Source of the DNA: a virus
Lineage: Duplodnaviria > Heunggongvirae > Uroviricota > Caudoviricetes
Reading direction: 5' to 3' (one strand)
Virus record (IMG/VR): IMGVR_UViG_3300031999_000011
Length of the DNA stretch: 64,000 nucleotides
Part shown: positions 7,079-63,543 of the stretch, piece after piece
Layout of the letters: every line of letters begins with the position of its first letter
How positions within the stretch are numbered: the stretch's first letter is position 1
Position numbers and translations under genes: made by a program
Notes under the pieces: generated by a model
Told to the model about the DNA's origin: nothing
What the model saw: only the letters and a program-made list of their open reading frames with translations
Database searches by the model: none

Positions 7079-7519
7079 TTGTTTAGTTATTATCCTATAT
7101 CGATGGGCACCATATTTATGATTAATAAAACAGGGTTTGCAGCAATTGTTGAATCAATACGTAATAATTCAAATACTTTACCTCGATATGGAAAGATTGC
7201 AGTATTAACCGATGAAATGAGTAAGTTAACTGTATCGATGCTTGTACAAGATGGTAAAACACCCATAACAGATAAAATGGAAACTCCAATGGGTAATGTT
7301 GCAGATATTATGCTAACATTATTTGATATTATACAAGATTGCTATCCAACTCTTAGTGGTGCAGAAATATACACCCAATTACAACATAAAATACATTGTA
7401 AATACGCTAAATGGTCATTACAGGTAGAACCAGTCGTTAATAATGATAATTCGGTTAAATCTAAGCAACGTCATTGGGCTGATGATACTATGTCAATTAG
7501 TATTATTAATACTTCTTAA
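7079..7519 (+). CDS. hypothetical protein
   Basis: 146-aa ORF (start uncertain; ATG at 7107/7128 also possible). Confidence 0.45.
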   Translation: MFSYYPISMGTIFMINKTGFAAIVESIRNNSNTLPRYGKIAVLTDEMSKLTVSMLVQDGKTPITDKMETPMGNVADIMLTLFDIIQDCYPTLSGAEIYTQLQHKIHCKYAKWSLQVEPVVNNDNSVKSKQRHWADDTMSISIINTS

Positions 7520-7576
7520 TTTGATTAAAATTATACTATATTATTAAATAAATATCTTTTTAATAAGGAGATATTT

Positions 7577-7711
7577 ATGTATAAATTAGGTATAGTAATA
7601 TTAGTAATATTGGGATATGTATGTTTGCAATATTTTGTAGAATCAGCAAAACCGTGTTCGCCTTTTAGTCGGGAATATGGAATATGTGGATCAGATATAC
7701 AAAAGAATTAA
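7577..7711 (+). CDS. small membrane peptide (44 aa)
   Basis: SD TAAGGAG upstream; hydrophobic core IVILVILGYVCL. Confidence 0.3.
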   Translation: MYKLGIVILVILGYVCLQYFVESAKPCSPFSREYGICGSDIQKN

Positions 7712-7914
7712 AAGAATTTTTTTAAAACTTTTTCAATTGCATAATGTAAATCCGATTCAAGATCCTCTACATCTTTTTCTGGTATAATAATGTCTTTAGG
7801 TAATTTCACTTTAGTGGTTACTTCATTATCATGTATTGTAGTTGAATATATTGCATTGGGAGTTAAGCAAGTATGATCTTTATCATATTTTTCAATTAAA
7901 TTTTTTAGTAACAT
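7708..7914 (-). CDS. hypothetical protein (minus strand)
   Basis: 68-aa ORF in a gap between + strand genes, not overlapping them. Confidence 0.35.
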   Translation of the reverse strand: MLLKNLIEKYDKDHTCLTPNAIYSTTIHDNEVTTKVKLPKDIIIPEKDVEDLESDLHYAIEKVLKKFF

Positions 7915-7992
7915 ATTATTATTCCGTTAATTATATATTATTTATGAGCTACTTTAGATTGTTAATAATAACAATAAGGGTAGTTCACTATT

Positions 7993-8367
7993 GTGGGGAG
8001 TTATATCGATATGAGTTATGATATTTATTTAAAGTATCCAGGTACTGATGATGCTTGTGTTTTAGAGGAACGTCATCAAATGAGAGGTGGTACATATCAA
8101 ATTGGTGGTACACCGAAAGCTGAATTTAATATTACCTGGAATTATGCAAAATTTTATTATGTATTATTTGGAGAATCTGGTATTCGTACACTTTATGGAA
8201 AAACTGGAGTGGAAAGTATTCCAATATTAGTAGATGCCATTAATCAATTAGGTGATGACGTTAGTGATAATTATTGGGATGCAACTGAAGGTAATGCAAA
8301 AAAAGCATTACAGTGTTTATTGGTGTTAGCTGAACAATGTCCTGATGGTATTTGGGATGGTGACTAG
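7993..8367 (+). CDS. hypothetical protein
   Basis: 124-aa ORF; small hairpin plus T-run just downstream (8375-8400). Confidence 0.5.
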   Translation: MGSYIDMSYDIYLKYPGTDDACVLEERHQMRGGTYQIGGTPKAEFNITWNYAKFYYVLFGESGIRTLYGKTGVESIPILVDAINQLGDDVSDNYWDATEGNAKKALQCLLVLAEQCPDGIWDGD

Positions 8368-8454: not shown

Positions 8455-8670
8455 ATGAATGTTAAAAAACTGAAACAATTGTTAGAAACTGTACCAGATG
8501 ATACAGTGATTTTAATTCCAGGTAATAATCATGATTATTATGAAGTGTCAATTGGTGAATTTACAACTGCACTATATGATAAACTTGAATGGTTTGAAGA
8601 TTTCGGAAATGCAGCAACCCCTGAAGAACAATATGGTGTAAGAATACCGGTATTTGTAGTAAGCGCATAA
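8455..8670 (+). CDS. hypothetical protein
   Basis: 71-aa ORF. Confidence 0.45.
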   Translation: MNVKKLKQLLETVPDDTVILIPGNNHDYYEVSIGEFTTALYDKLEWFEDFGNAATPEEQYGVRIPVFVVSA

Positions 8671-8763
8671 TATAATAATTATTCATTTTATTGAGGTTAC
8701 CTTATATTACCATTATAAAAAAATAATAAATAATATATTAACCACAAATAAGGAAGATGTATT

Positions 8764-9327
8764 ATGCCAACATCAAATGGATTACCTAATTATACTGATT
8801 TTTTATCAGAAAATAAAGCGGGTATTAAACCACCAAATACTGTTGTAACAGATAAGTATAATGACATATTTGACCAGAATATGGTATTTTTGGTTGCTGC
8901 CGCAGCTGCTGAATTAGATAATGTTGCAACAACTGACCTCGCACCAAGATCGTTATCAGAATTTGCAGCACAAACATTATTATTAAAACAAGAAATTATT
9001 CGTAATGAAAAGCTTACATTGCTTGGTGTAGATTTTAATACACTTAAAACGGATTTTACTACACTTAAAACCGATTTCACTACATTTAAAACAGAATTTA
9101 ATATATTTAAAAATGATTTTAATATATTTAAAACAGATTTTAATTCACTTAAAGAACGAGGGGTTAATGAGAGTTTAGGTATTGTCAGTCGTGGAATTAG
9201 TGTAGGTGATATGAATAAAGATAATCGTGGTTTGATACGAATGGCATTAGATGATTCAGGTATGAAAGAAACATATCTCGCTGCACGACAAAGTGAAGTT
9301 GATACTCCAATGATTCCTAGCAGTTGA
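8764..9327 (+). CDS. repeat protein with heptad-like (F/L)KTDF(T/N)T repeats; possible fibre/adhesin component
   Basis: Seven or more consecutive 7-aa repeats encoded by a degenerate 21-bp DNA repeat. Confidence 0.55.
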   Translation: MPTSNGLPNYTDFLSENKAGIKPPNTVVTDKYNDIFDQNMVFLVAAAAAELDNVATTDLAPRSLSEFAAQTLLLKQEIIRNEKLTLLGVDFNTLKTDFTTLKTDFTTFKTEFNIFKNDFNIFKTDFNSLKERGVNESLGIVSRGISVGDMNKDNRGLIRMALDDSGMKETYLAARQSEVDTPMIPSS

Positions 9328-10620: not shown

Positions 10621-10854
10621 ATGATAACTGAACGCATAATACATTGTATAAGATGTAATATATACGTTGGGACAATACGGGATGCTAAGCTTAAGAAAGG
10701 GTTAGCATTTGTTTGTCCAACTTGTATCGTTGAATTTAATAATATATCAAGTAGTTCTAGTAGTTCTAGTAGTTCTAGTAGTTCTAGTAGTGTATTTAGT
10801 GATTTATTTAATGATAGTATATTTGGAGGTATTTTTGATAAGGACAAATTATAA
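10621..10854 (+). CDS. zinc-ribbon protein with poly-Ser tract
   Basis: CIRCN...CPTC then 16 consecutive Ser encoded by the (AGTAGTTCT)n repeat. Confidence 0.45.
   Translation: MITERIIHCIRCNIYVGTIRDAKLKKGLAFVCPTCIVEFNNISSSSSSSSSSSSSSSVFSDLFNDSIFGGIFDKDKL
10746..10795 (+). repeat. (AGTAGTTCT)n microsatellite inside the CDS
   Basis: Five or more perfect 9-bp units read directly. Confidence 0.8.
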
Positions 10855-11042
10855 TGAAAACAACTACTCCAAATTTACCAATAAGTGAAGTACCACCGGT
10901 GTGTGTTAATGAGTTCTTGCAAGAGTTAATACAATTATGTAAGAAGTATGAGTTTGAGCTTATCGGGCATTGTTATGGTGTTGACGGAAAAGTAAATGGT
11001 GATATTGCCATTACAAAGGCTGAATCAACAACCACACACTGA
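10854..11042 (+). CDS. hypothetical protein
   Basis: 62-aa ORF; start overlaps previous stop. Confidence 0.4.
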   Translation: MKTTTPNLPISEVPPVCVNEFLQELIQLCKKYEFELIGHCYGVDGKVNGDIAITKAESTTTH

Positions 11043-11198
11043 ATCCAATATATGAAAATTACATTTCAAGATTCAAATATTGAATTTGGTGAATTAGACA
11101 AAATTGCCGATGCATTAAAAATTTTAGACATTGAACCTATATCGTTATGGATTAACCGATCATGATTAACTTATTTACTGTATTACAAGAGCATTAAT

Positions 11199-11561
11199 AT
11201 GAGCTACTTACATCCAGATGGCAGTCCAGATACACATGAAGAAATACTTGAAAGTGCCCGATGTTTTGTAGCGGTTATTGGTAAATTGTTTCAACCAAAT
11301 GAAGGTATGGTGGTTGAGTTAGAATATCAGGCAAATTATACTAATGACAAATGGGGTAAATACATTGTCTGGAAAGATGAAAAGTCTCAACAGATTAAAA
11401 TTGATAAACTATCGACAACTGACTACATATATAACTCACCAAATGGTCAATTAGTTTGGGTACACGCTGATGTATGTGTTGCACCATGGGACGACTTACA
11501 GGTAGGTGAATATATCAATATCGCAGAGAAAGTTGGGAAGATAGTAATACAGTTGAGGTAG
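11199..11561 (+). CDS. hypothetical protein
   Basis: 120-aa ORF. Confidence 0.5.
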   Translation: MSYLHPDGSPDTHEEILESARCFVAVIGKLFQPNEGMVVELEYQANYTNDKWGKYIVWKDEKSQQIKIDKLSTTDYIYNSPNGQLVWVHADVCVAPWDDLQVGEYINIAEKVGKIVIQLR

Positions 11562-13035: not shown

Positions 13036-13110
13036 GACGTGTTGGTATAGTGGTTGTTGCCCTGGTCTGCAAAACCAGTGAGAAGGGTTCAATTCCCTTA
13101 CACGTCTCCA
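13036..13110 (+). tRNA. tRNA-Cys (GCA), encoded CCA
   Basis: Acceptor GACGTGT/ACACGTC; anticodon stem CTGGT/ACCAG with loop CTGCAAA; T-arm AAGGG-TTCAATT-CCCTT; 3' T-CCA. Confidence 0.8.
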
Positions 13111-15055: not shown

Positions 15056-15445
15056 ATGAATAATGTATCACTATTAGTATTAATTGCATTGTTTATACTT
15101 AAACATTTTGTTATTGATTTTTTTTTAGAAACTCCTTATCAATCTAATAATAAACATATATTAGGTCATTTAGGAGGTATATTGCATGCACAGTTACATA
15201 GTTTTACATCTTGGGTAATATTAGGATTTACATTTAACTTCTTTATACCTATAGTTGTGGTAGCTGTGGTAGCTGAATTTTTTATTCATTATTTTATTGA
15301 TTTAGTTAAAACAAATTTATGTGTATTATATAAATGGCAGTATAATACTCAAAAAGGGTTTTGGTATATGTTAGGTGCTGATCAAGCACTTCATTATTTG
15401 ACGTATATTGCGATGATATATTATATTATTACACATATTAATTAA
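15056..15445 (+). CDS. integral membrane protein (tandem paralog A, DUF3307-like His-rich TM protein)
   Basis: LKHFVIDFFLETPYQSNNKHILGHLGGILHAQLHSFTSWVILGF; 3-4 predicted TM segments. Confidence 0.55.
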   Translation: MNNVSLLVLIALFILKHFVIDFFLETPYQSNNKHILGHLGGILHAQLHSFTSWVILGFTFNFFIPIVVVAVVAEFFIHYFIDLVKTNLCVLYKWQYNTQKGFWYMLGADQALHYLTYIAMIYYIITHIN

Positions 15446-15449
15446 AATT

Positions 15450-15821
15450 GTGAACACTACATTATTGATTGTAATCGGACTTTTTACGATTAAACACTTT
15501 ATTATGGATGTTTTGTGTCAAACACCATATCAATTTCAACATAAACATATATTAGGACATCCAGGTGGAATTATCCACACATCATTACACGCATTTACGT
15601 CTTGGTTAATACTAGGATTTATATTTGGGTTTTTAACTCATGTAGTTGTAATTGCCGTTATATTTGAGTTTTTTGCTCATTATTTTATAGATTTTTTTAA
15701 AAGAAATTTCACATTAATGCATAAATTAACTCCAGCTGATTTGAACTATTGGTACGTATCAATATTTGATCAATTATTACATTATTTAACATATTTTTGT
15801 ATGATTTATTATATAATATAG
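15450..15821 (+). CDS. integral membrane protein (tandem paralog B)
   Basis: IKHFIMDVLCQTPYQFQHKHILGHPGGIIHTSLHAFTSWLILGF; about 55% identity to the previous ORF. Confidence 0.55.
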   Translation: MNTTLLIVIGLFTIKHFIMDVLCQTPYQFQHKHILGHPGGIIHTSLHAFTSWLILGFIFGFLTHVVVIAVIFEFFAHYFIDFFKRNFTLMHKLTPADLNYWYVSIFDQLLHYLTYFCMIYYII

Positions 15822-18627: not shown

Positions 18628-18702
18628 GGTAGATGAGCTAGTTTGGAATAGCGTGCGCCTGAAGAGCGTGAGAATAAGGTTCGAATCCTTGATCTACCAC
18701 CA
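18628..18702 (+). tRNA. tRNA-Phe (GAA), encoded CCA
   Basis: Acceptor GGTAGAT/ATCTACC; D-arm GCTA-GTTTGGAA-TAGC; anticodon loop CTGAAGA; T-loop TTCGAAT; A-CCA. Confidence 0.8.
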
Positions 18703-18710
18703 GAATTAAT

Positions 18711-18786
18711 TGGGCTATAGTGTAATTGGAAACACCTCACACTTTGACTGTGATATTGTTCGGTTCGAGTCCGGCTAGCCCTACCA
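18711..18786 (+). tRNA. tRNA-Gln (TTG), encoded CCA
   Basis: U1 start as in bacterial tRNA-Gln; D-arm GTGT-AATTGGAA-ACAC; anticodon stem TCACA/TGTGA with loop CTTTGAC; T-loop TTCGAGT; 1:72 U-U mismatch. Confidence 0.7.
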
Positions 18787-18858
18787 CTTTTAAAAAGATA
18801 AATAAGTAGATACACTAAAAGTAGTGGTTAAAATATAATATACGTAGGAGATTGTATA

Positions 18859-19245
18859 ATGATAAAATTAATATTTATAGCACTATTATGTGTTTTTGTT
18901 ACAGGTTGTGCATCAATGAGCAATTGGACGCCAACAGTTGATACATATAACGATAGACGTGCATCTCATATCCCGCAAGATCAAGCAGAGTGCAGACAAT
19001 TAGCATCTCAAGCATCTGGTGGAACAGTTAAAGAAACCTTTACCGGTGCAGGTGTAGGAGCATTAATAGGTGCAGCAGGTGGAGCAATCGCTGGAGCGTT
19101 TATCGGAAATCCAGCAACTGGTGCAGCGATTGGTGCTGCTGCAGGTGGTTTTGGTGGTGGTGCTGGATTGGGCTTCAACGCCGAGAACAATTATAAACAA
19201 TCATACAAAGTTTGTATGAGACACAGAGGTCATACAGTAATTTAG
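18859..19245 (+). CDS. OsmB/SlyB-like glycine-zipper outer-membrane lipoprotein
   Basis: Lipobox FVTGCAS; GAGVGALIGAAGGAIAGAFIGNPATGAAIGAAAGGFGGG glycine zipper; paralog of 33194..33673. Confidence 0.65.
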   Translation: MIKLIFIALLCVFVTGCASMSNWTPTVDTYNDRRASHIPQDQAECRQLASQASGGTVKETFTGAGVGALIGAAGGAIAGAFIGNPATGAAIGAAAGGFGGGAGLGFNAENNYKQSYKVCMRHRGHTVI

Positions 19246-19258
19246 TATGAAAAATTAT

Positions 19259-19336
19259 GCGCTCGTAGCTCAATTGGATTAGAGCATAGGATTTCTAATC
19301 CTATGGTTGGAGATTCGAATTCTCTCGAGCGTGCCA
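19259..19336 (+). tRNA. tRNA-Arg (TCT), encoded CCA
   Basis: Acceptor GCGCTCG/CGAGCGT; anticodon stem TAGGA/TCCTA with loop TTTCTAA; T-arm GGAGA-TTCGAAT-TCTCT; G-CCA. Confidence 0.8.
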
Positions 19337-19353
19337 AACATTAAAAGAATTAT

Positions 19354-19431
19354 GTCCATGTAGCTCAATTGGATTAGAGCATCGGTCTACGAAACCGAAG
19401 GTTATCCGTTCAAATCGGATCATGGATACCA
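19354..19431 (+). tRNA. tRNA-Arg (ACG), encoded CCA
   Basis: Acceptor GTCCATG/CATGGAT; anticodon stem TCGGT/ACCGA with loop CTACGAA; T-arm ATCCG-TTCAAAT-CGGAT; A-CCA. Confidence 0.8.
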
Positions 19432-19472
19432 AATGGTAAAAAAATGATATATAATATATCTTAATGAATAAT

Positions 19473-19548
19473 GCAGGTGTAGCTCAATGGGTAGAGCGCC
19501 GTCCTTCCAAGTCGGATGTTGCAGAATCGTCCTCTGTCACCTGCTCCA
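19473..19548 (+). tRNA. tRNA-Gly (TCC), encoded CCA; atypical T-loop ATCGTCC
   Basis: Acceptor GCAGGTG/CACCTGC; anticodon loop CTTCCAA; one mismatch in the anticodon stem; A54/U58 instead of T54/A58. Confidence 0.65.
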
Positions 19549-19555
19549 ATTTTAT

Positions 19556-19631
19556 GCTTCGTTAGCTCAATGGGTAGAGCACTGCATTGTCACTGCAGAG
19601 GCAGCGGGATCATAGCCCGCACGAGGCGCCA
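19556..19631 (+). tRNA. tRNA-Asp (GTC), encoded CCA; atypical T-loop ATCATAG
   Basis: Acceptor GCTTCGT/ACGAGGC; anticodon stem CTGCA/TGCAG with loop TTGTCAC; T-stem GCGGG/CCCGC; G-CCA. Confidence 0.7.
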
Positions 19632-19663
19632 AATATAATGTAATTATATCAATTAAATGATTT

Positions 19664-19885
19664 ATGAAATTTCACAAACTTGAAGTATACGTTTTCGATT
19701 TTGAAGAAGGTGATAATATTAAAGATATTATCGTTGAAATTGAACAAAATCGACATTTTAATATGGAAGTTAAAGCTCATCAAACAGTTGATATTGGTGA
19801 ATGGGATGATGATCATGAATTAAATCTAACACGCACTTCATTAGAACAGTTTAGAGCGTATTTTGAAAAGAATAATGTCGGGTGA
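19664..19885 (+). CDS. hypothetical protein
   Basis: 73-aa ORF lying between tRNA genes. Confidence 0.4.
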   Translation: MKFHKLEVYVFDFEEGDNIKDIIVEIEQNRHFNMEVKAHQTVDIGEWDDDHELNLTRTSLEQFRAYFEKNNVG

Positions 19886-19922
19886 TACTCATGTGAATCC
19901 GTGAGTCTGGTTATAATTAAAT

Positions 19923-20000
19923 GGGCCTGTATCCCAATTGGTAAGAGGACACCGGCTTAGACCCGGTGTGTTGGAGATTCGAATTCTCTCAGGCCTACCA
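19923..20000 (+). tRNA. tRNA with anticodon TAG (Leu, reads CUA) but class-I short variable loop; encoded CCA
   Basis: Acceptor GGGCCTG/CAGGCCT; 3-bp D-stem; anticodon stem ACCGG/CCGGT with loop CTTAGAC; variable GTGTT; T-arm GGAGA-TTCGAAT-TCTCT; A73-CCA. Confidence 0.6.
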
Positions 20001-23157: not shown

Positions 23158-23355
23158 ATGTGTAAAAAATTACAAATTATAAGTTTAGTTGTAGTATATA
23201 GTATTTGGCCTCAGGTTACCAGTGCAGAAACAGGTGTTACACATGATAGAAATAAAACAGGTTCATATAAACGAATGGATCCGCTAACCTCTTTTTTTGG
23301 TGGACTCGGGTTAATTGGTATCGGTATGTGGATGAACCACAAAAATAAAGTTTAA
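23158..23355 (+). CDS. small secreted/membrane protein
   Basis: SD TAGGAGG upstream; signal-peptide-like N-terminus. Confidence 0.4.
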   Translation: MCKKLQIISLVVVYSIWPQVTSAETGVTHDRNKTGSYKRMDPLTSFFGGLGLIGIGMWMNHKNKV

Positions 23356-24509
23356 TAATATACTCGTTTATGTGGAGTTTTATATACTAACGCACCTTGT
23401 GCATTCGGTTCTTTTCGTGAATTATATAATTTATGAGGACAAAAACCAACCATTGATTTAGGATGTATTCGCATTTTATATAACGATATAATAGCATCAC
23501 TAAATGTATGTCCACTAACAACATTATCATCGATAAAAATTATATCTTTGTCTTGTAGTTGAGAAGCAATATGTTTTACAGCTAATTGAAAATTGTAAAA
23601 CCCTCTATCTCGATCTCCTCCTACTGGTGCTATTGCATTGTGAATACTAAATCTTGAATTTTCTAACCTATCAGTTGCTGTAGCTAATTCATTTTCAGCT
23701 TTAGTCAATTCTCTGTGAGTCATATCTAATTCTTCTATAGTATCAAAATCAGCATTATTTAATCTAACTATATGTTGTTTTAAGTGTGCAATAGTATTTT
23801 GTAATTCTTTTAACCGATTATGAGGACTAATTGATCTATCAGCTGCAGTATCATGTTCTTCACCTTTTACACCTCTAGGTTCATATATACCACCCGTATA
23901 CACATAGTTAGATAATCGAGGCCAATGGTTCTTCAAAAATGCACCATGTATAATATTAATATTACTCAAATATTCAGAAATTATATTAGCAAATTGTTTA
24001 ACTACAGGTGAACTTGATGATAATGTAACTAATACTACTTGGTTGTGTTCATCTGGGTGTATTTTATTATTGTGTAATCTTACAAACATTTTTTGAATTG
24101 CAGCATATTGTTTATCACGTGAAGTGCGTTGTTCAGGTTTTGGTAGTATATGTGATATTACTTTTTTTAATCCCACTCTTACAAATTTTTCAATTTCCGC
24201 ATCCGACATAGTATGATTCGTATTTCGTTTTTTAATAGCATCCATTAACCCAGTTGTATGTTCTTGATTTTCCCAACCTATAGGAGTTTTATCTAATGAA
24301 TATGCATGTAATACAGGAATACTTGCAGGTGGTTTGAGTAGGTTATATCTATTAAACAACATTAATTCTTCTTTTTGCAAATTGATTTGCACAGTATGAA
24401 TACCTGTTTTGTATTCTTTAGCATTTAATGTACCGGGTTCATCAAATTCATGAGCATATGTACCGTCTGCTAATTGCCGTTTAATCGTTTTAATTTCAGT
24501 TAATAACAT
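23352..24509 (-). CDS. phosphoribosyltransferase (type I PRTase) domain protein with inserted coiled-coil region
   Basis: C-terminal PRPP-binding loop IIFIDDNVVSGHTF; earlier VVLVTLSSSSPVV hood-like segment; minus strand, convergent with the NADAR gene. Confidence 0.6.
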   Translation of the reverse strand: MLLTEIKTIKRQLADGTYAHEFDEPGTLNAKEYKTGIHTVQINLQKEELMLFNRYNLLKPPASIPVLHAYSLDKTPIGWENQEHTTGLMDAIKKRNTNHTMSDAEIEKFVRVGLKKVISHILPKPEQRTSRDKQYAAIQKMFVRLHNNKIHPDEHNQVVLVTLSSSSPVVKQFANIISEYLSNINIIHGAFLKNHWPRLSNYVYTGGIYEPRGVKGEEHDTAADRSISPHNRLKELQNTIAHLKQHIVRLNNADFDTIEELDMTHRELTKAENELATATDRLENSRFSIHNAIAPVGGDRDRGFYNFQLAVKHIASQLQDKDIIFIDDNVVSGHTFSDAIISLYKMRIHPKSMVGFCPHKLYNSRKEPNAQGALVYKTPHKRVYY

Positions 24510-25103: not shown

Positions 25104-25949
25104 ATGTTTGATTCACCAGTTGTACCAAAATCGTTTTTTATGAATGTTGGAGAGAACTCAGCAAATATTGCATTGAGTTTAACTGTAGCAAAAGAGAAAG
25201 TGATAGTACGTATAACAGGTGGTTGTGGATATATGAGTGTAGAAGATGCTAATGGGTTGTATGATCTATATAGTCAAGCGTTTAGTGGATTTAACGGTGT
25301 GATGTTGTTTGGTGGTACTCGTATGGTTAGCAGGATAGACCGAAATACGGTCATTCCAGGTATAACTGAAGTTGTTCCTCGTATTAAGCATGAAAATCCA
25401 GGTTGTGTTGTTTTAGGAGTTGTTCCAAGAACAGAGGATGTTAAACTGGATACAACTTATGGGTTTATTATTTCAGACGATAATAACCCGTGGATAACTA
25501 TTCCACATCCAGATCAAGATTTTTTTGTAATTGTACAACGTTCAGTAGATCAATCAGCTGATTGGAATGATGAATGGCAAGAATGTTATAATGTAACAAA
25601 ACGATTACGAACCTATTGTGATTGGACTTCATTATTAATTGCATATAATGGCGGTGGAGTTACTGAAAAAGAAATACTTACAATTGCAGCAGCTGGTTGG
25701 CCTGTATTGTTGGTTAATGGTGGAGGTAGGAAAACAGATGAGTATGCTGCAAATGAAGAATTTTTAGCAGCACATCCAAATGTAAGAGTATGTGAAAAAA
25801 ATGTAAGAGATTTTAGAAATACATTGATTGAAATGGGTATACTACTTGGGTTTAGGAAATCTTTAAATCTACAAGTAGTAAATGGTGGTAAAATTAATTT
25901 AAGAGAGTATATTAATTATGAACATAACAGCACAAACAGTAATAAATAA
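25104..25949 (+). CDS. LOG/SLOG-like Rossmann-fold protein (tandem paralog A)
   Basis: RITGGCGYMS (compare LOG GGGxxGxMG) and LLVNGGGRKTDE (compare LOG PGGxGTxxE). Confidence 0.55.
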   Translation: MFDSPVVPKSFFMNVGENSANIALSLTVAKEKVIVRITGGCGYMSVEDANGLYDLYSQAFSGFNGVMLFGGTRMVSRIDRNTVIPGITEVVPRIKHENPGCVVLGVVPRTEDVKLDTTYGFIISDDNNPWITIPHPDQDFFVIVQRSVDQSADWNDEWQECYNVTKRLRTYCDWTSLLIAYNGGGVTEKEILTIAAAGWPVLLVNGGGRKTDEYAANEEFLAAHPNVRVCEKNVRDFRNTLIEMGILLGFRKSLNLQVVNGGKINLREYINYEHNSTNSNK

Positions 25950-26694
25950 GTCGGGTAAAGTTGATTTATTTGTATCAGAAAGCAGTGGAGTTTTACCTGC
26001 TAATTATATGTTAGTGGCAACAAAAGCTAAGTCAAAAGTTGCACTACGTATTGCAGGTGGTTGTAAAAATATGAGTGAGCAAGATAAGTTAGATATGCTT
26101 GATTTTTTTGCTACCGCTTTAATTGGATATTCAGGTGTTCTTTTTTCTGGAGCGACTCGACAATTAACAGCTGATGGTTTACTGGATCCAATGGTGACTG
26201 ATGTTCCTGGTTATGTTGCTCAAAAAAATGATGGTATAATTGCATTAGGTACAGCACCACGCACTGATGCTTGGTCATTACAAGGTGAATCTGCATTTAT
26301 ATTAGATGGATATGGTACAAGACCAAACCCAACAATGGATGCTATTTTATTAGTACAAGATGGTCCTGATGCAACATTAGATTGGGATGGAGATGTACCA
26401 GTTTATTTGAAAATTATGGAATCTTGGAGAAGTTATGCTGGTTTTGAACATGTTGGTTTAATTTCGTGGAACGGTGGCGCAGTCACAGAAGCTGAATTTA
26501 GAGCTACTGCTAACCGTAAATGGCCTACCATATTAATACAAGGTTCTGGTCGTGCTACTGATGATGCTATTCAAGCAATAGTAGGAGAATTACCGGGTGC
26601 GTTACAAGGTGATCATGTATATGTTGTTGATAAGTCTGATCCATTAGCATTACGACAACTTTTAATCGATAATGGTTTTATATTAATTATTTAG
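25918..26694 (+). CDS. LOG/SLOG-like Rossmann-fold protein (tandem paralog B)
   Basis: RIAGGCKNMS and ILIQGSGRATDD; overlaps paralog A by 32 nt; same length and architecture. Confidence 0.55.
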   Translation: MNITAQTVINKSGKVDLFVSESSGVLPANYMLVATKAKSKVALRIAGGCKNMSEQDKLDMLDFFATALIGYSGVLFSGATRQLTADGLLDPMVTDVPGYVAQKNDGIIALGTAPRTDAWSLQGESAFILDGYGTRPNPTMDAILLVQDGPDATLDWDGDVPVYLKIMESWRSYAGFEHVGLISWNGGAVTEAEFRATANRKWPTILIQGSGRATDDAIQAIVGELPGALQGDHVYVVDKSDPLALRQLLIDNGFILII

Positions 26695-36805: not shown

Positions 36806-37408
36806 GTGTTTTTTGTGAGTCGTACACTATATAACTTAGTTTTATTTACATCTGAATCTGGCAATTTAGCTAAGTTTGTGGGTAATCATTTTAAGTCAAA
36901 TAATCCAATCTATATATCTCCAGATGACGATCTTGAAGTGGTATTTCATCATTTGGTGCATCTTTCAATTCGACGTAGATTAATTGGAATCTCTGTTGGT
37001 TATACTAAATTAATACCAAAAAATATTATCGATTTGTTTGAAGGTCAATTATTTAACACTCACCCAGGTGAATTACCGTTAACACGTGGATTATATGGTA
37101 TTACAGCAATTCAAAAAATGATTACTTCGTATAAATCACTAGGAAGAATAACCATTCATCGAGTTGATGAACATTATGATACTGGTAGTGTAATTGCAAC
37201 CATTACATTTCCATATTTAACAGAGTTAGTTGATATGCAACTATTATATGAACTTTCAAATAATAATGATAGTCCCATACCTAAAGATTATTTATATGAA
37301 TGGACAGTAGATTACTCAAGAATGTTAAAATTGATTGAACCAACATTCGTTGTTAAATTTATTGATAATTGCTTTAAAACTAAATTAAAAAGTCATATTA
37401 AAAAATAA
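36806..37408 (+). CDS. formyltransferase (PurN/Fmt N-terminal catalytic domain family)
   Basis: LVLFTSESGNLAKF (compare PurN LISGNGSNLQAI), FNTHPGELPLTRG (N.HPSLLP..RG), ITIHRVDEHYDTGSVIA (GVTIH.VDE.LDTGPII); GTG start. Confidence 0.7.
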   Translation: MFFVSRTLYNLVLFTSESGNLAKFVGNHFKSNNPIYISPDDDLEVVFHHLVHLSIRRRLIGISVGYTKLIPKNIIDLFEGQLFNTHPGELPLTRGLYGITAIQKMITSYKSLGRITIHRVDEHYDTGSVIATITFPYLTELVDMQLLYELSNNNDSPIPKDYLYEWTVDYSRMLKLIEPTFVVKFIDNCFKTKLKSHIKK

Positions 37409-52090: not shown

Positions 52091-52504
52091 ATGAAAAAAA
52101 TGATAATAGTTATGAGAACTGATCTTAATATGAGATGTGGAAAGCAAATTATCCAAGGTGCGCACTGTGCAGTTAATGTTATTTTACAACAAGGTGAGAT
52201 TTTATCACATAACAATGAAATGGGTATTTTTATACCATTAACAGCCGATTTAACTGAATGGTTAAATGGTGATACGTTTGAGTTATTTAATGGTAAGTAT
52301 ACCAAAATAACTGTCGGAGTAAATTCAGAAGATGAAATAATTGATCTTTGTAGACAAGCTGATTTTGCAAGTATTAATTATAAAATTACAACAGATTTAG
52401 GACTTACTGAATTTCACGGTATTCCGACTATTACAAGTTGTGCAATAGGTCCTGCCGATGTAGATGAAATTGATAAAATAACTGGTCATTTAAAATTATT
52501 ATAA
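52091..52504 (+). CDS. peptidyl-tRNA hydrolase, PTH2 family
   Basis: KMIIVMRTDLNMRCGKQIIQGAHCAVNV matches the PTH2 signature KMVLVVRTDL.MGKGKIAAQC.HA. Confidence 0.8.
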   Translation: MKKMIIVMRTDLNMRCGKQIIQGAHCAVNVILQQGEILSHNNEMGIFIPLTADLTEWLNGDTFELFNGKYTKITVGVNSEDEIIDLCRQADFASINYKITTDLGLTEFHGIPTITSCAIGPADVDEIDKITGHLKLL

Positions 52505-57259: not shown

Positions 57260-57985
57260 ATGAGTATAAGAGATAATTTAGGAAATCGTATGAAAAAATA
57301 TGAAACTGTTCATACTAATTTTTTAATGCGTAGAACACCTGTAATAATTCGTATTGATGGTAAGGCTTTCCATACATGGACGAGAAATTGTGAGCAACCA
57401 TTTGATGAAATGTTACACGAATCAATGAAAGCTACTATGCGTTTTTTAGTTAATGAAATGCAAAATGCAGTTTATGGATATACTCAAAGTGATGAGATTT
57501 CAATTCTATTATGCGATTGGTTGACATTTACTACTGAACAATGGTTTGATGGTAATATTCAAAAAATTGCATCTGTATCAGCTAGCCTTGCAACAGGTAT
57601 ATTTAACGCAATTCCAAACAATCATACCTCGCAACTTGCGTTTTTTGATGCACGGGTTTTTAATGTACCTTTTGCTGATGTACATAATTATTTCTTGTGG
57701 AGACAACAAGACGCTACTCGAAATTCAATTCAAACATACGCACGTGCTTACTTTTCTCATAAAGAGTTACACAAAAAATCTTGCAATGAAATTCAACAAA
57801 TGTTGTTTGAACAACATGGTGTAAACTGGAATGATTTAGATGTTTGGAAAAAACGTGGTTCACATGTTTATCGAGTACCTGATGAAGTACAAGGTGGTAC
57901 TTGGATGTATCATACTGAAATGCCAATTATTAATAAAGACTTCGCCGCGTTTGGACCCATAAATACATATTTAAAAATGGAGTAA
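57260..57985 (+). CDS. tRNA-His guanylyltransferase (Thg1) / Thg1-like 3'-5' polymerase
   Basis: IIRIDGKAFHTWT (compare VVRLDGRNFHRF), YGYTQSDEISIL (AYGQSDEYSFV), YFLWRQQDATRNSI (YLSWRQADCHINNL). Confidence 0.85.
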   Translation: MSIRDNLGNRMKKYETVHTNFLMRRTPVIIRIDGKAFHTWTRNCEQPFDEMLHESMKATMRFLVNEMQNAVYGYTQSDEISILLCDWLTFTTEQWFDGNIQKIASVSASLATGIFNAIPNNHTSQLAFFDARVFNVPFADVHNYFLWRQQDATRNSIQTYARAYFSHKELHKKSCNEIQQMLFEQHGVNWNDLDVWKKRGSHVYRVPDEVQGGTWMYHTEMPIINKDFAAFGPINTYLKME

Positions 57986-58702: not shown

Positions 58703-59176
58703 GTGAATATTATTAAAAAAAATACAAATATTATTATATTATTCGGAATATTTGTTGTTACTATAGCAACAGCACTTACAAACACCGAATCAACTTGTCC
58801 TGTACCTAGTACACCGGGTAATTTATCTTGCACTGTTACGAAAATAATAGATGGAGATACAGTGCACGCTCAATGCGGTGGAATTGATACCAAAATTAGG
58901 TTAACTGTTATTGATTCTTATGAGTCAAAGAAAAATACTCGAGCATTTAAACAAGCATATGAACAAAAAATAACAGTTGAAGAAGTCGTTATACGTGGAA
59001 AGCAAGCTACTGAATATACTAAACAAGAATTAGCAGATAAGCAAATTTTAGTTGTACCACCTGCTAAATCACAAATTGATAGATATGGTAGAACATTAGG
59101 CACAATATATTTTAATTGTGTTGATATAAATCAAAAATTACTTACAGAGCACCCAGATGTGTTTTTAAGATATTAA
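58703..59176 (+). CDS. membrane-anchored thermonuclease (staphylococcal nuclease, SNase) -like protein
   Basis: IIDGDTVHA...IRLTVIDSYE (V.DGDT...R..GIDaPE) and IDRYGRTLGTIYFNCVDINQKLLTEHPD (DrYGR.La.vy..g.dvN..LV..G.A). Confidence 0.5.
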   Translation: MNIIKKNTNIIILFGIFVVTIATALTNTESTCPVPSTPGNLSCTVTKIIDGDTVHAQCGGIDTKIRLTVIDSYESKKNTRAFKQAYEQKITVEEVVIRGKQATEYTKQELADKQILVVPPAKSQIDRYGRTLGTIYFNCVDINQKLLTEHPDVFLRY

Positions 59177-59260: not shown

Positions 59261-60037
59261 ATGCTAATTACACATGAAGTACCGTTTAGTTTGTTAGAAA
59301 TGTCTAGAGAATTCAATGATATAGATTATGTTCTCGTGCATTTACTGGAAGATTACCCAAATTACTACAAGTTTTTTGAAAAATCATTAGCAATGGGGCG
59401 TACAGTAATTTTAGACAACAGTATTTTTGAGCTCGAAGAGGTCTTTGATGCTGACAGGTTTGCGTATTGGGTTGAAAGATTAAAACCAACTGAATATATT
59501 ATTCCAGATGTACTTGATAATAGTACAGCGACTATTGAGTCATGTATGAATTGGATAACTGAGTATAGTCATTTACCTGGTAAGACAATTGGTGTTATTC
59601 AAGGTGCAACCGTTGAAGATGCGATTGAATGTTATTCAACAATATCTTTGTTAGTTGATAAAGTTGCGATTAGTTTTAATTGTAAATTTTATGAGTACTT
59701 ATATCCCCATACAAATAAATTATTTTCATGGATGCACGGTAGGCAAATGTTTATTGATTTATTAATAGATGAAGGTATAATTAACATATCACAACCGTTT
59801 CATTTATTAGGAATAGCTCTTCCTCAGGAAATACAACATTATAAGAGTGGATATGATTTTATTGAAAGTATTGATACCAGCAACCCAATAGTGCACGCAA
59901 TCAATAATATTTCATATAAATCATATGGGTTAGATAGTAAAGTAAGTGAAAAAATGATAAATTATTTGCATTATACTGAAATTGATCACAATATTTTAAA
60001 TCATAATATAAAAAAATTTAGGAGCTTTATAAAATGA
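59261..60037 (+). CDS. hypothetical protein; candidate DpdA/TGT-like transglycosylase
   Basis: RTVILDNSIFEL resembles the TGT catalytic-Asp motif ILTDSGGFQV; IDTSNPIVH resembles the second catalytic-Asp motif FDCVLPTR; inference from motifs and neighbourhood only. Confidence 0.5.
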   Translation: MLITHEVPFSLLEMSREFNDIDYVLVHLLEDYPNYYKFFEKSLAMGRTVILDNSIFELEEVFDADRFAYWVERLKPTEYIIPDVLDNSTATIESCMNWITEYSHLPGKTIGVIQGATVEDAIECYSTISLLVDKVAISFNCKFYEYLYPHTNKLFSWMHGRQMFIDLLIDEGIINISQPFHLLGIALPQEIQHYKSGYDFIESIDTSNPIVHAINNISYKSYGLDSKVSEKMINYLHYTEIDHNILNHNIKKFRSFIK

Positions 60038-60561
60038 AATGGCTAGCACTATTTAGTCAAACCGGTAGTGAACTTAAAAATATTATTGAGCAGACTGGAC
60101 GTAAACCTAATATGGTTTTAACAAACAGATTAGGTTCATCTGAAATTGATGGAGTGGTACCGATAACATATACTCCTAAAACACCTACTTCAATTGTATA
60201 CAATTTTTATTTTAATCATTATGATATTATCACATTACATGGTTATTTGAGAATAATATCACCTGATGCTTGTGATCATTTAATTTATAATGGACATCCT
60301 GCTGCTATTCATTTATATCCTGAATTGAAAGGTAAAGATAAACAAGAAGATGCATTTATTTACAAAGACAAATATCCAAGAATGGGAGTTGTTATTCATC
60401 GAGTAACACCTGAATTGGATGCTGGTGAAATTATAATGTGTCATGATGTAATTAATGATACAACAAGTATTGAAGATGCATATCAAAAATTAGCTAATTT
60501 ATCTGTTAGGCAATGGGTTATATTCGTAAAGAATAGACCAAATATGGGAGAACTCGTATGA
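60034..60561 (+). CDS. PurN-type (GAR-transformylase family) formyltransferase
   Basis: LALFSQTGSELKNIIE (VVLISGNGSNLQAIID), GYLRIISP...NGHPAAIHLYPELKG (GFMRILSP...NIHPSLLPKYPG; catalytic N and H conserved), IHRVTPELDAGEII (VHFVTDELDGGPVI; catalytic D conserved). Confidence 0.85.
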   Translation: MKWLALFSQTGSELKNIIEQTGRKPNMVLTNRLGSSEIDGVVPITYTPKTPTSIVYNFYFNHYDIITLHGYLRIISPDACDHLIYNGHPAAIHLYPELKGKDKQEDAFIYKDKYPRMGVVIHRVTPELDAGEIIMCHDVINDTTSIEDAYQKLANLSVRQWVIFVKNRPNMGELV

Positions 60562-61085
60562 AACTGGCACTTTGTGGGGTACACGGATCCGGAAAAACAA
60601 CATTATTAAATACGATACAAGAATTGAATCTGTTACCCGGTTATTATTATTCTACTAATTTAACTCGTAGATTAAGGGATCAGGGATATCTTATTAGTGA
60701 TAAGGGTGATGATGCGACACAAAATGCAATAATGAGTGTTCATAGAGCTAATATGGCATATACTGATATAATTATGGATAGATCTGCTTTAGATTGCTAT
60801 GTATATACTGAATACTTATATCGACAGGATAAGGTAAGTGGACTAACTAGTCAAAAGCTTTTTTCGCAAGCGATGGATTGTGTTAACAGGTATAATATTA
60901 TGTTTTACATTAAGCCAGAATTTGAATTAGAAGATGATGGTGTGCGACCTATTGATCAAAAATTTCAAAATGATATTGTGGAAACTTTTGATCGTATAAT
61001 AACTTTGTGTAGGTTACGAGTTACGTTATTGACAGGAACCGTTGATCAAAGAATTGAACAATTTAAACAAACATTAGGGATATAA
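60558..61085 (+). CDS. P-loop NTPase / (d)NMP-kinase-like protein
   Basis: MKLALCGVHGSGKTTLL Walker A at the extreme N-terminus, like phage dNMP kinases; start overlaps the upstream stop. Confidence 0.6.
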   Translation: MKLALCGVHGSGKTTLLNTIQELNLLPGYYYSTNLTRRLRDQGYLISDKGDDATQNAIMSVHRANMAYTDIIMDRSALDCYVYTEYLYRQDKVSGLTSQKLFSQAMDCVNRYNIMFYIKPEFELEDDGVRPIDQKFQNDIVETFDRIITLCRLRVTLLTGTVDQRIEQFKQTLGI

Positions 61086-61086
61086 T

Positions 61087-61989
61087 ATGTCAGATATTAA
61101 TAAACATTTAGGGCAAGTTTCGCAATATAGTTCAACATATTCACCAGATATTTTAGTACGTGAGAGTCGGTTGTTGAATCGGGAGGCACACTATGTAGAT
61201 TCAGATTCGTTTGTTGGTTATGATGTGTGGAATTTATATGAAGTTTCAGCATTAACTGATAATGGACTACCAGTTGTAGGGTTCGGTAAACTAATATACT
61301 CTGCTTCTAGTAAGTATATTGTTGAATCAAAATCTTTGAAATTGTACTTTTTTAGTTACAATATGGAGAAACTGTGGAGAAATACTGATGATGTTATTGA
61401 TACGATGGAACGACAAGTAGTTATTGATTTGTCATCATTACTTGAAACACCTGTTCAATTTAAGTTCTTTCACGCAAATGATAATCATATACCATATGCT
61501 CCATTTCAACTAACAGAAGATAGCAAAATACCATGTAAATTTAAAAATATTGATAATATTGATGGTGTTGAAGATATTAAATTTGTCGATTTTAAAGAAA
61601 ATAAAGATTTGTTAAAAGTTGAATATAATGATAAATTATGTTATAATGCTATAACATCTTGTTTTTTAAGATCGAATTGTCGCATAACTCATCAACCAGA
61701 TTGGGGGGACATTTATGTTTATTATAGAGGTGATTATCAATTAGATGAATTATCTTTTATTAAGTACATTGTTAGTTTTAGAAATGAATTCCACTTTCAT
61801 GAAGAGGTTTGTGAAATGATATATGCTGTATTATATAACATACTACAACCTAAAGAATTACTCGTAGGTTGTTTGTATACTCGGCGAGGGGGTTTAGATA
61901 TAAATCCTATACGAGCAACTCATACTTTTTTATTAGATTCTGGATTAATTGATATTAACACTGTTGTACAAAAAACAACAAGACAATAA
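61087..61989 (+). CDS. queF: NADPH-dependent 7-cyano-7-deazaguanine (preQ0) reductase, bimodular YqcD-type QueF
   Basis: Colinear with E. coli QueF: GYDVWNLYEVS, VESKSLKLYFFSY (E(S/L)K(S/A)LK(L/Y)(Y/F) QueF motif), SNCRITHQPDWGDIYVYYRG (catalytic Cys in NC.ITHQPDW), YIVSFRNEFHFHEEVCE, YTRRGGLDINP. Confidence 0.9.
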   Translation: MSDINKHLGQVSQYSSTYSPDILVRESRLLNREAHYVDSDSFVGYDVWNLYEVSALTDNGLPVVGFGKLIYSASSKYIVESKSLKLYFFSYNMEKLWRNTDDVIDTMERQVVIDLSSLLETPVQFKFFHANDNHIPYAPFQLTEDSKIPCKFKNIDNIDGVEDIKFVDFKENKDLLKVEYNDKLCYNAITSCFLRSNCRITHQPDWGDIYVYYRGDYQLDELSFIKYIVSFRNEFHFHEEVCEMIYAVLYNILQPKELLVGCLYTRRGGLDINPIRATHTFLLDSGLIDINTVVQKTTRQ

Positions 61990-61992
61990 TAT

Positions 61993-63543
61993 ATGGTATT
62001 AAAATATACAACTGAAAAGTTTATTGATAGGGCGATAATAGTACATGAAAACAAATATGTTTATACTAAATCAATATATCTAGGAGCAACAACCAAATTA
62101 ATTATTATATGCCCTATACATGGTGAATTTCCAAAAACACCAGATGGGCACATAAATGCAAAAAGTGGATGTCCACAGTGTGGTTATTTAAAATCAAAAC
62201 AAACAAATTTAGCACGATATGGAGTTGAATATCCGTTACAATCTAAAGAAATACATAATAAGACAAAACAATCATGTTTGATTAATAATGGAGTTGAATA
62301 TCCCTTACAATCTAAAAAATGTAGAGACAAAGCAAAAACCACAAGAGTTGAATTGTATGGAAATGAAAATTATTTAAATAGTGATGTTGGTGTTGAACAA
62401 CGTGCTAATATTATGCAAGAAAAGTATGGAACAGTACACGCACTACAAATAGTAGAATTTAAGGATAAATTAATACGAACAAATAAAAACAAGTATGGTA
62501 GAGAATACTCTCATCAACAACATATATCATATGAAGATGATAAAAAGTTAAATGATAAGGATTGGTTATATGAACAACATTATAATAAAAAATTAAACTT
62601 AACAGAAATATCTAACATATTAGGAGTATCAACTGGTACAATTGGTCGACATTTTCGAATATTAGGAATTGAAGTTCTTAATTTATCTCATTCACTTGGC
62701 GAAAAAGAGGTATTACAGTATATTCAAACATTAAATGATAATATAACTAGTAATAGTCGTAGTGTTATATCTCCACTTGAACTTGATATATATTTACCTG
62801 ATTACAACTTAGCTATTGAATATAACGGTACTTTTTGGCATTCTGAATTATGTGGAATTGATAAAAATTATCACATAAATAAAACAATTCAGTGTAATAA
62901 TAAAAATATTAGATTAATTCATATATTTGATACTGAATGGGAATTAAAACAAGAAATTGTTAAATCAAGATTATCATCTTTACTTGGTAACAATAACATA
63001 ATATATGCAAGAAAATGTATTATAGTTAAATTAACAAGTAAACAAAGTAGTGTATTTTTTAATGAAACACATATTCAAGGAAATGCGGGGAGTTCAATAT
63101 GCTACGGGTTAGAATATAATAATGAACTTGTTGTTGTAATGTCTTTTGGTAAAAGTCGGTTTAATAAAGATATAGAATATGAATTAGTTAGATTTGCTAA
63201 TAAATTATACACCAACGTAATTGGAGGTGCTAGCAGATTATTTAAATATTTTATTAAAACTCATCAACCAGCATCAATTATTAGTTATTCTGATAAACGA
63301 TGGAATACCGGCAATGTGTATTTACAATTAGGATTTAAATATTTACATACTTCTACTCCAAATTATTTTTATTTTCATAATACAAATAGCTACACACTAT
63401 TATCCAGACAACAGTTTCAAAAACACAAATTAAAAGATAAACTCGAAATTTTTGATCCTGTATTGACAGAGTGGGAAAATATGCAAAATAATGGATATAA
63501 TCGAATATGGGATTGTGGGAATGATGTATACATATATAAATAA
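61993..63543 (+). mobile_element. homing-endonuclease-like gene: N-terminal zinc-ribbon DNA-binding module, 3x GVEYPLQSK repeats, PD-(D/E)xK (Tlr8p/PBCV-type, IEYNGxxWH) nuclease core, C-terminal extension
   Basis: FIDRAIIVHENKYVYTK...CPIHGEF...GCPQCG; LPDYNLAIEYNGTFWHSE; free-standing, inserted directly after the queF stop. Confidence 0.55.

Follow-up and report, generated by a model that had tools for sequence, protein, structure and literature searches.

A DpdA3-DpdN-kinase-QueF operon in a large AT-rich phage, predicted to replace guanine in DNA with a 7-deazaguanine

The stretch of viral DNA studied here (IMG/VR record IMGVR_UViG_3300031999_000011; 64 kb, in the following called the window) contains a compact module of four open reading frames (ORFs) at 59261-61989, which code for a predicted guanine transglycosylase of the DpdA3 subfamily, a short PurN-family formyltransferase (DpdN), a small P-loop kinase (referred to as K) and the nitrile reductase QueF (Table 1). 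All four are located on the forward strand and at the coordinates given in the original prediction, which had also noted overlapping stops and starts: ORFs 1 and 2 as well as ORFs 2 and 3 overlap by 4 nt, and ORFs 3 and 4 are separated by 1 nt, as is typical of an operon with translational coupling. With a G/C content of ~30% throughout, nearly all genes on one strand and eight tRNA genes, the window represents an accessory part of a large phage genome; its relatives are IMG/VR viral contigs, and the same phage was assembled from several metagenomes, with contigs of up to 120 kb. A megablast search of the module region against phage genomes gave no match, and a scan for promoters (47 sites vs 41 expected) and terminators (none) was uninformative in DNA with 30% G/C. 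From the gene content we consider it likely that the operon enables this AT-rich phage to substitute a 7-deazaguanine for the guanine of its DNA, most likely 7-(formylamino)methyl-7-deazaguanine (fdPreQ1), as a protection against restriction. At the level of the product this reading is well supported by orthology, because the operon shows gene-for-gene synteny and 30-46% identity with that of vB_FspM_immuto_2-6A (immuto), a Flavobacterium phage whose DNA is 100% fdPreQ1.

Table 1. Genes of the module and further features of the window
Feature	Position	Strand	Remarks
ORF 1, DpdA3-subfamily 7-deazaguanine transglycosylase (predicted)	59261..60037	+	258 aa; minimal TIM barrel with tRNA-guanine transglycosylase (TGT) fold (predicted model)
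ORF 2, DpdN, short PurN-family formyltransferase (predicted)	60034..60561	+	175 aa; Formyl_trans_N and homology to immuto DpdN
ORF 3, K, small P-loop kinase (predicted NadR-ribosylnicotinamide-kinase/deoxynucleoside-kinase/thymidylate-kinase fold)	60558..61085	+	175 aa; AAA_28
ORF 4, bimodular (YqcD-type) QueF, NADPH-dependent preQ0 to preQ1 nitrile reductase (predicted)	61087..61989	+	300 aa; QueF_N and QueF
Eight tRNA genes: Cys, Phe, Gln, two Arg, Gly, Asp, Leu	13036-13110 and 18628-20000	+	
tRNA-Asp(GUC)	19556-19631	+	class normally with queuosine at position 34
Second PurN-like formyltransferase	36806-37408	+	200 aa
Staphylococcal-nuclease homolog	58703-59176	+	hydrophobic N-terminus
Homing-endonuclease-like gene	61993-63543	+	516 aa
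CCA-adding/poly(A) polymerase-type enzyme, PTH2 peptidyl-tRNA hydrolase, Thg1-like tRNA-His guanylyltransferase	3209-4387, 52091-52504, 57260-57985		RNA-maintenance genes
Sir2-family protein; weak PRTase-CE match; two tandem SLOG (LSDAT_prok) paralogs	1408-2121, 23352-24509 (-), 25104-26694		

ORF 4 matches both QueF domains of Pfam (QueF_N, E 1.6e-23; QueF, E 1.9e-20) and aligns over its full length with the QueF of V. cholerae (3BP1, E 1.2e-40). In this alignment ESKSLKLYF, which follows the QueF motif E(S/L)K(S/A)hK(L/Y)(Y/F/W), the catalytic Cys in SNCRITHQPDWG (SNC(R/L)IT), QPDWG, FHEE with the catalytic His, YTRRGGLDINP and the catalytic Asp are all kept, in agreement with its initial description as a bimodular QueF with an intact Cys. 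Against the NCBIfam model TIGR03138 it scores 226.6 bits, which is below the equivalog cutoff of 293.45, as expected for a divergent phage copy of QueF; even so, no other family comes close to TIGR03138 in its score. The PHROG label of ORF 4, 'GTP cyclohydrolase', appears to be a mislabel, and the QueF gene of immuto carries the same one.

The preceding formyltransferase gene had been described as an intact member of the PurN family. Indeed, ORF 2 matches Formyl_trans_N of Pfam above the cutoff (34.3 bits vs 26.1), with a match that covers only the catalytic C-terminal half of the model, and its YNGHPA (N-x-H) and the Asp of ELDAGEII align with the catalytic residues of the PurN and PseJ structures. 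The best phage match of ORF 2 is YP_010114479 of immuto (E 6e-26), which is the protein named DpdN by Cui et al. 2023 (PMC10516641). Across its family (66 sequences) FSQxGxE, NGHP, PELKGxDPQ and DxG are conserved, NGHP and DxG to >90%, and FSQxGxE lies at the position of the N-terminal phosphate-binding loop of PurN. We assign ORF 2 as DpdN, a predicted formylase of the preQ1 aminomethyl group.

For ORF 1 neither Pfam (including TGT, PF01702) nor NCBIfam gave a match. By tblastn, however, it matches an immuto gene annotated 'DNA guanine transglycosylase, DpdA' (46% identity) and a hypothetical protein of CP220-like Campylobacter phages (42%), and the hidden Markov model (HMM) of its family detects CGPG_00065 of Cellulophaga phage phiST at E 9.5e-25. 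The immuto, CP220 and phiST proteins belong to the DpdA3 subfamily of Cui et al. 2023, who reported an HHpred probability of 98.8% for the phiST homolog (PMC10516641). An AlphaFold2 model of ORF 1, made from an alignment of 46 sequences, has a predicted local distance difference test score of 94.7 and shows a TGT-type (beta/alpha)8 barrel; its top structural matches are TGT and DpdA by two methods, and Foldseek ranks ten TGT, archaeal-type TGT (arcTGT) or DpdA entries first. Columns that are invariant across the 46 sequences are D52-N-S-x-F56, P82-D83, R161, H181-L-L-G184 and D205-T-S. The segments ILDNSIFEL and IDTSNP, which had been noted for their resemblance to the two catalytic-Asp motifs of this enzyme class, carry D52 and D205, respectively, so that this resemblance extends to invariant family columns. 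For bacterial DpdA the active site is known from experiment: Asp95 (acid/base), Phe99, Asp130, Leu236 and Asp256 (nucleophile) (PMC10164549). The spacing of D52-x3-F56, D83, L182/L183 and D205 in ORF 1 is that of Asp95/Phe99, Asp130, Leu236 and Asp256. ORF 1 ends ~50 residues past the putative nucleophile and its family has a single invariant Cys; DpdA3 would thus be a bare barrel without the C-terminal Zn subdomain of TGTs. Based on sequence family and model, the class of ORF 1 can be refined to a TGT-fold transglycosylase of the DpdA3 subfamily, with base exchange as its predicted activity. Net charge and isoelectric point were tried as a proxy for DNA binding and discarded as non-discriminating, since not only the DpdA3 proteins (median isoelectric point 5.3) but also E. 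coli Tgt (5.97) are acidic.

The third gene, originally noted as a P-loop (d)NMP-kinase-like gene, matches AAA_28 of Pfam with 41.5 bits (cutoff 27) and a PHROG labeled 'thymidylate kinase' at E 1.3e-27. With the profile of the K family, the ribosylnicotinamide kinase (RNK) domains of NadR are found first (1LW7, E 8.8e-7, then 6GYE), followed by thymidylate kinase (TMPK) and deoxyguanosine kinase (dGK), while single-sequence searches of the PDB with DpdA3 and K gave chance matches only. The best structural matches of K are all small-molecule kinases (NadR RNK, deoxynucleoside kinase, dGK and TMPK), and a Walker A, a DR motif and a DDG-x-R (DDGxR) lid are common to K and the NadR and deoxynucleoside kinases. 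The fold predicted for K is that of a small-molecule nucleoside/nucleotide kinase. We rejected the label 'thymidylate kinase', as K scores 14 bits against TIGR00041 (cutoff 83.25) and TMPKs rank below NadR and the deoxynucleoside kinases in profile as well as structure searches. In contrast to these best matches, K is a stand-alone protein found in 7-deazaguanine clusters, and its gene neighbourhood gives no hint of NAD metabolism.

The closest characterised system is that of immuto, where the same four families occur in the same order and orientation, with identities of 46% (DpdA3), 38% (DpdN), 30% (K) and 43% (QueF). The immuto genes are DpdA3 (gp206), a 50-aa ORF, DpdN (gp204), a 'thymidylate kinase' (gp203) and QueF (gp202). 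The two loci differ in that the 50-aa ORF separates DpdA3 from DpdN in immuto, whereas these genes overlap directly in the window, and in that immuto carries QueD, QueE, a phosphoribosyltransferase (PRTase) and FolE within 4 kb upstream, whereas the module of the window stands alone; furthermore, QueF is followed by a homing-endonuclease-like gene in the window. Of 10^6 nucleotides in the DNA of immuto, 345,000 are fdPreQ1, and dG is absent (PMC10516641). The proposal of dPreQ1 in the phage DNA, probably N-formylated, thus corresponds to the product of this system. The module belongs to the DpdA3/DpdN fdPreQ1 system described in 2023 and is not a new kind of system; what we add is its presence in a new, uncultured phage lineage, its abundance, with 1,901 metagenome proteins in the DpdA3 family at E <= 0.001, and, from the comparison of loci, the close association of K with DpdA3.

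The two other phages with a characterised DpdA3 make different products. In CP220 (Firehammervirus), DpdA3 (gp056) is followed by a K homolog (gp057, 34-36% identity) and preceded by a protein with an HD domain and a P-loop, there is neither QueF nor DpdN, the product is dADG and G is replaced to 100%. In phiST, a dDG system in which G is completely replaced, there are DpdL and MazG instead of QueF and DpdN, and a small Walker-A protein (CGPG_00066, GEICSGKDT; L092 46381-46860, reverse strand) lies directly beside DpdA3. This protein shows no detectable homology to K but is similar to the P-loop half of CP220 gp055, and according to Cui et al. it has no homologs in other 7-deazaguanine phages (PMC10516641). 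A second P-loop protein of phiST (CGPG_00044; L092 27602-28646, reverse strand) adjoins a PRTase with homologs in immuto (gp211) and at 17 IMG/VR loci. In each of the three characterised DpdA3 phages G is replaced to 100% (PMC10516641). The DpdA3 subfamily is linked to complete rather than partial replacement. The bacterial Dpd system of S. Montevideo is different in this respect: its DpdA (413 aa) is sequence-specific and <0.1% of G is modified (PMC10164549), and its partner DpdB is a ParB-like ATPase and not a kinase-fold protein.

To place the module among its relatives, 80 DpdA3 loci were fetched from IMG/VR, their ORFs were called and clustered, and dereplication at 90% DpdA3 identity left 42 groups with at least 3 kb of downstream sequence. 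Within 4 kb of DpdA3, QueF is present in 37, K in 36 and DpdN in 32 of these groups. The arrangement DpdA3-DpdN-K-QueF dominates (28 groups); less frequently DpdA3 is combined with K and QueF (4), K alone (4), DpdN and QueF (3), QueF alone (2) or DpdN alone (1). We regard DpdA3 and K as the core, to which QueF and then DpdN are added as tailoring steps. In the flanks we usually found clusters coding for FolE, a QueE-like radical SAM protein, QueD and QueC, in many cases together with genes for a PRTase, a class-II amidotransferase-like protein and a dCTP-deaminase-like protein. The latter two, of which the glutamine-amidotransferase-like gene has an N-terminal MCAI and no Pfam match, lie right after QueC (e.g. 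L015, L027) and each occur in 13 of the 42 groups, in DpdA3-DpdN-K-QueF loci. Among the DpdN loci, 31 of 32 contain QueF, which is in line with DpdN having the amine produced by QueF as its substrate.

This distribution also bears on whether the DNA would be formylated at all. ORF 2 could be an ordinary auxiliary gene of purine biosynthesis, as known from cyanophages, in which case the module would stop at dPreQ1. The best phage matches of ORF 2 outside DpdN are in fact cyanophage PurN genes (P-SSM7, 30% identity), some of the related loci (DpdA3-K-QueF) do without DpdN, and the window holds a second intact formyltransferase. However, ORF 2 is far closer to immuto DpdN than to the cyanophage genes (E 6e-26 vs 3e-6), it is translationally coupled inside the operon, it reaches only 37.6 bits against the PurN equivalog TIGR00639 (trusted cutoff 150.1) at a length of 175 aa (vs ~212 aa), and its family adjoins DpdA3 in three quarters of the groups (32/42), almost only together with QueF. 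We regard an unformylated product for this reason as very unlikely and retain the assignment as DpdN. The second formyltransferase gene, 22 kb from the module among unannotated ORFs, matches Formyl_trans_N with 40.3 bits and the DpdN-family HMM at E 1.9e-11, with NTHP and HRVDEHYDTG present.

In the pathway that we propose, preQ0 would come from the host or be made by genes in another part of the phage genome, and QueF, with its fully conserved active site, would form preQ1 by reduction of the preQ0 nitrile to an aminomethyl group. DpdN would then formylate this amine, by analogy to PurN from N10-formyl-tetrahydrofolate; we suggest this step because the N, H and D residues are conserved and because DpdN occurs almost only where QueF is present. 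Judging from fold and motif register, DpdA3 would exchange guanine for the deazapurine by a TGT-type double displacement, with D205 as nucleophile and D52 as acid/base, the end product being fdPreQ1 in DNA. K, which goes with DpdA3 and not with the tailoring enzymes, would by its fold phosphorylate a nucleoside or nucleotide, a step that the published post-replicative model leaves unexplained; formylation could take place before or after insertion. Complete replacement of guanine is among the most extreme natural DNA chemistries and blocks many restriction enzymes. Hosts in turn counter guanine-replaced DNA with dedicated glycosylases (bioRxiv 2025.10.29.685425).

Several observations weigh against this reading. 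With respect to ORF 1, the proposed TGT/DpdA relationship stands for the fold and for the similarity to the immuto gene, but is weak at the level of sequence profiles: the DpdA3 profile finds 7UI4 in the PDB only at E 0.51, a weak link to TGT, and hhalign against the single sequence of E. coli Tgt, although it places PD, IGVVQG/FGIIQG, HLLG/YLMG and DTS/FDC in register, gives a probability of only 1.6%. DpdA3 alone was inactive in E. coli (PMC10516641), and for DpdA3 and DpdN no in vitro activity is on record. A detectable K is missing from 6 of the 42 DpdA3 groups. Finally, the module has no source of preQ0 nearby. Searches with HMMs built for FolE, QueE, QueD and QueC from the related loci found no match in the window, as the original prediction had said, nor in a total of ~84 kb when 10 kb downstream (L005) and 10 kb upstream (L093) were included. 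The preQ0 genes should thus lie elsewhere in the >120 kb genome, or preQ0 comes from the host. The nearest relatives (74% and 62% DpdA3 identity) also carry a stand-alone four-gene module.

The component without a described role is the kinase, as the original prediction had pointed out: the word 'kinase' occurs 0 times in the main text of Cui et al. 2023 (PMC10516641), and the later literature that we searched gave no mention of a kinase of this module. In our data K lies within 4 kb of DpdA3 in 36 of the 42 groups and, conversely, DpdA3 is present at 56 of the 64 K-family loci that had sufficient upstream sequence, in most cases 0.8-1.4 kb upstream of K; 4 more adjoin FolE, QueE or QueD. K persists where QueF or DpdN are missing (CP220, DpdA3-K and DpdA3-K-QueC loci), and in the phage genome collection K homologs are found only in DpdA3 phages and, distantly, in Streptomyces phages with an unrelated context. 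A 'methyltransferase' beside the Streptomyces-phage homolog was considered as a hidden DpdA3 but is a genuine FkbM methyltransferase. K therefore follows DpdA3 and not the tailoring genes, and is a near-constant core partner of DpdA3. Most likely it handles a 7-deazaguanine (deoxy)nucleoside or nucleotide, or a by-product derived from guanine. Such a partner does not fit the published post-replicative view in any obvious way, and reopens the question of whether full substitution takes place after replication, as published, or at the nucleotide pool.

Among the specific roles of K, we rank phosphorylation in a pool-level pathway highest, above a DpdB-like cofactor and guanine salvage. The last of these, in which a PRTase and K as a GMP kinase would recycle guanine, ranks low, as K is unlike guanylate kinases. 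The model for a pre-replicative route is phage T4, in which gp56 (dCTPase), gp42 (dCMP hydroxymethylase) and gp1 (dNMP kinase) achieve complete base replacement with hydroxymethyl-dC. The analogy is functional only, as the T4 proteins show no homology to those of the window, and for DpdA3 phages a route at the nucleotide level is hypothetical. In such a route DpdA3 would swap the base on free dG or dGMP, DpdN may act on the monophosphate, K would phosphorylate the product in the direction of the triphosphate, dGTP would be depleted and the polymerase would incorporate the modified nucleotide, with the same end product.

The 100% replacement in the three phages with a characterised DpdA3, the kinase fold of K and its tight linkage to DpdA3 are in line with this route, as are the bare barrel of DpdA3 (258 aa, compared to the 413 aa of DpdA), the FSQxGxE loop of DpdN at the position of the phosphate-binding loop of PurN, the ADG nucleoside seen in infected cells and the inactivity of DpdA3 alone in E. 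coli. Genes of the dNTP-hydrolase type also lie beside DpdA3 in CP220 (HD domain) and phiST (MazG), and three loci (L160, L163 and L174; e.g. L163 5308-13441) show the order QueD-QueE-FolE-MazG-K-small ORF-split DnaE polymerase, with a MazG homologous to phiST CGPG_00068; at these loci DpdA3 was not detected within a distance of 8 kb from K. However, we know of no TGT-family enzyme that acts on mononucleotides, and dADG phosphates are reportedly absent from CP220-infected cells. As a third obligate component, dNTP-hydrolase genes (MazG/dUTPase_2, HD, DCD-like) had to be rejected, since they are found near only 55 of 165 loci and mostly belong to a generic DCD-like family, which also speaks against the pool-level route. 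Moreover, Cui et al. make the case for an exchange of the base on DNA after replication (PMC10516641). On balance the pool-level route appears possible but doubtful; if true, activity on a mononucleotide would be a first for the TGT family.

A further pair of genes may bear on the handling of the nucleotide pool. Approximately 5.5-7.5 kb past QueF and outside the window, L005 contains genes for a dUTPase_2, an all-alpha NTP pyrophosphatase, and for another AAA_28 P-loop protein (8505-9194 and 10678-11265), the latter a distant K paralog (HMM E 4e-6); the pair is kept in the nearest relative (L097 15965-18208).

Instead of being a metabolic kinase, K might be an ATPase that DpdA3 needs as an accessory factor on duplex DNA, similar to DpdB. 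This would be consistent with the requirement of bacterial DpdA for the ATPase DpdB and ATP (PMC10164549), with the failure of DpdA3 alone in E. coli, and with the finding that K adjoins DpdA3 whichever 7-deazaguanine is made. We nevertheless consider it unlikely: K is unrelated to the ParB-like DpdB, all of its best structural matches are small-molecule kinases, whose DR motif and DDGxR lid it retains, and its 175 aa leave no extra DNA-binding domain. The conserved K is the obvious missing component in the failed DpdA3 reconstitution, and its substrate would decide between an exchange before and after replication.

The window also offers some grounds for a role of these genes in tRNA modification, with QueF raising the supply of preQ1 for making queuosine (position 34) in tRNAs of the host or the phage, as it encodes a tRNA-Asp(GUC) of the queuosine class besides Thg1, the CCA-adding enzyme and PTH2. 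The earlier statement that queuosine on tRNA is of no use to a phage was thus too absolute, whereas its preference for a DNA target is far better supported: the characterised relatives of DpdA3 accompany fully modified DNA, DpdA3 is without the C-terminal part of tRNA TGTs, and neither a formyltransferase nor a kinase has a place in queuosine synthesis. A function in tRNA modification therefore appears extremely unlikely, and replacement of guanine in DNA remains the preferred reading. Just downstream of the window (L005 5452-8493) there are two more genes of potential relevance to RNA, coding for a TROVE (Ro60-like) protein and an RNA ligase.

Among the neighbours of the module, the staphylococcal-nuclease homolog lies directly upstream of DpdA3, and a gene of this kind also adjoins the module in the relatives L097 and L096. 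Directly after QueF follows the homing-endonuclease-like gene (PHROG 3339, E 1e-124; DUF7487, DUF723). As the TROVE gene comes directly after QueF in L097, with no homing-endonuclease-like gene in between, the latter looks like a lineage-specific mobile insertion. Farther away in the window there are a Sir2-family protein, a weak match to PRTase-CE and two tandem SLOG paralogs (Table 1), domains that are commoner in bacterial defence or NAD-related systems. In L096 (carrying P0008), the module is flanked by thymidylate synthase and dihydrofolate reductase (7511-8362 and 15156-15677), folate-cycle genes that could support a step dependent on formyl-tetrahydrofolate.

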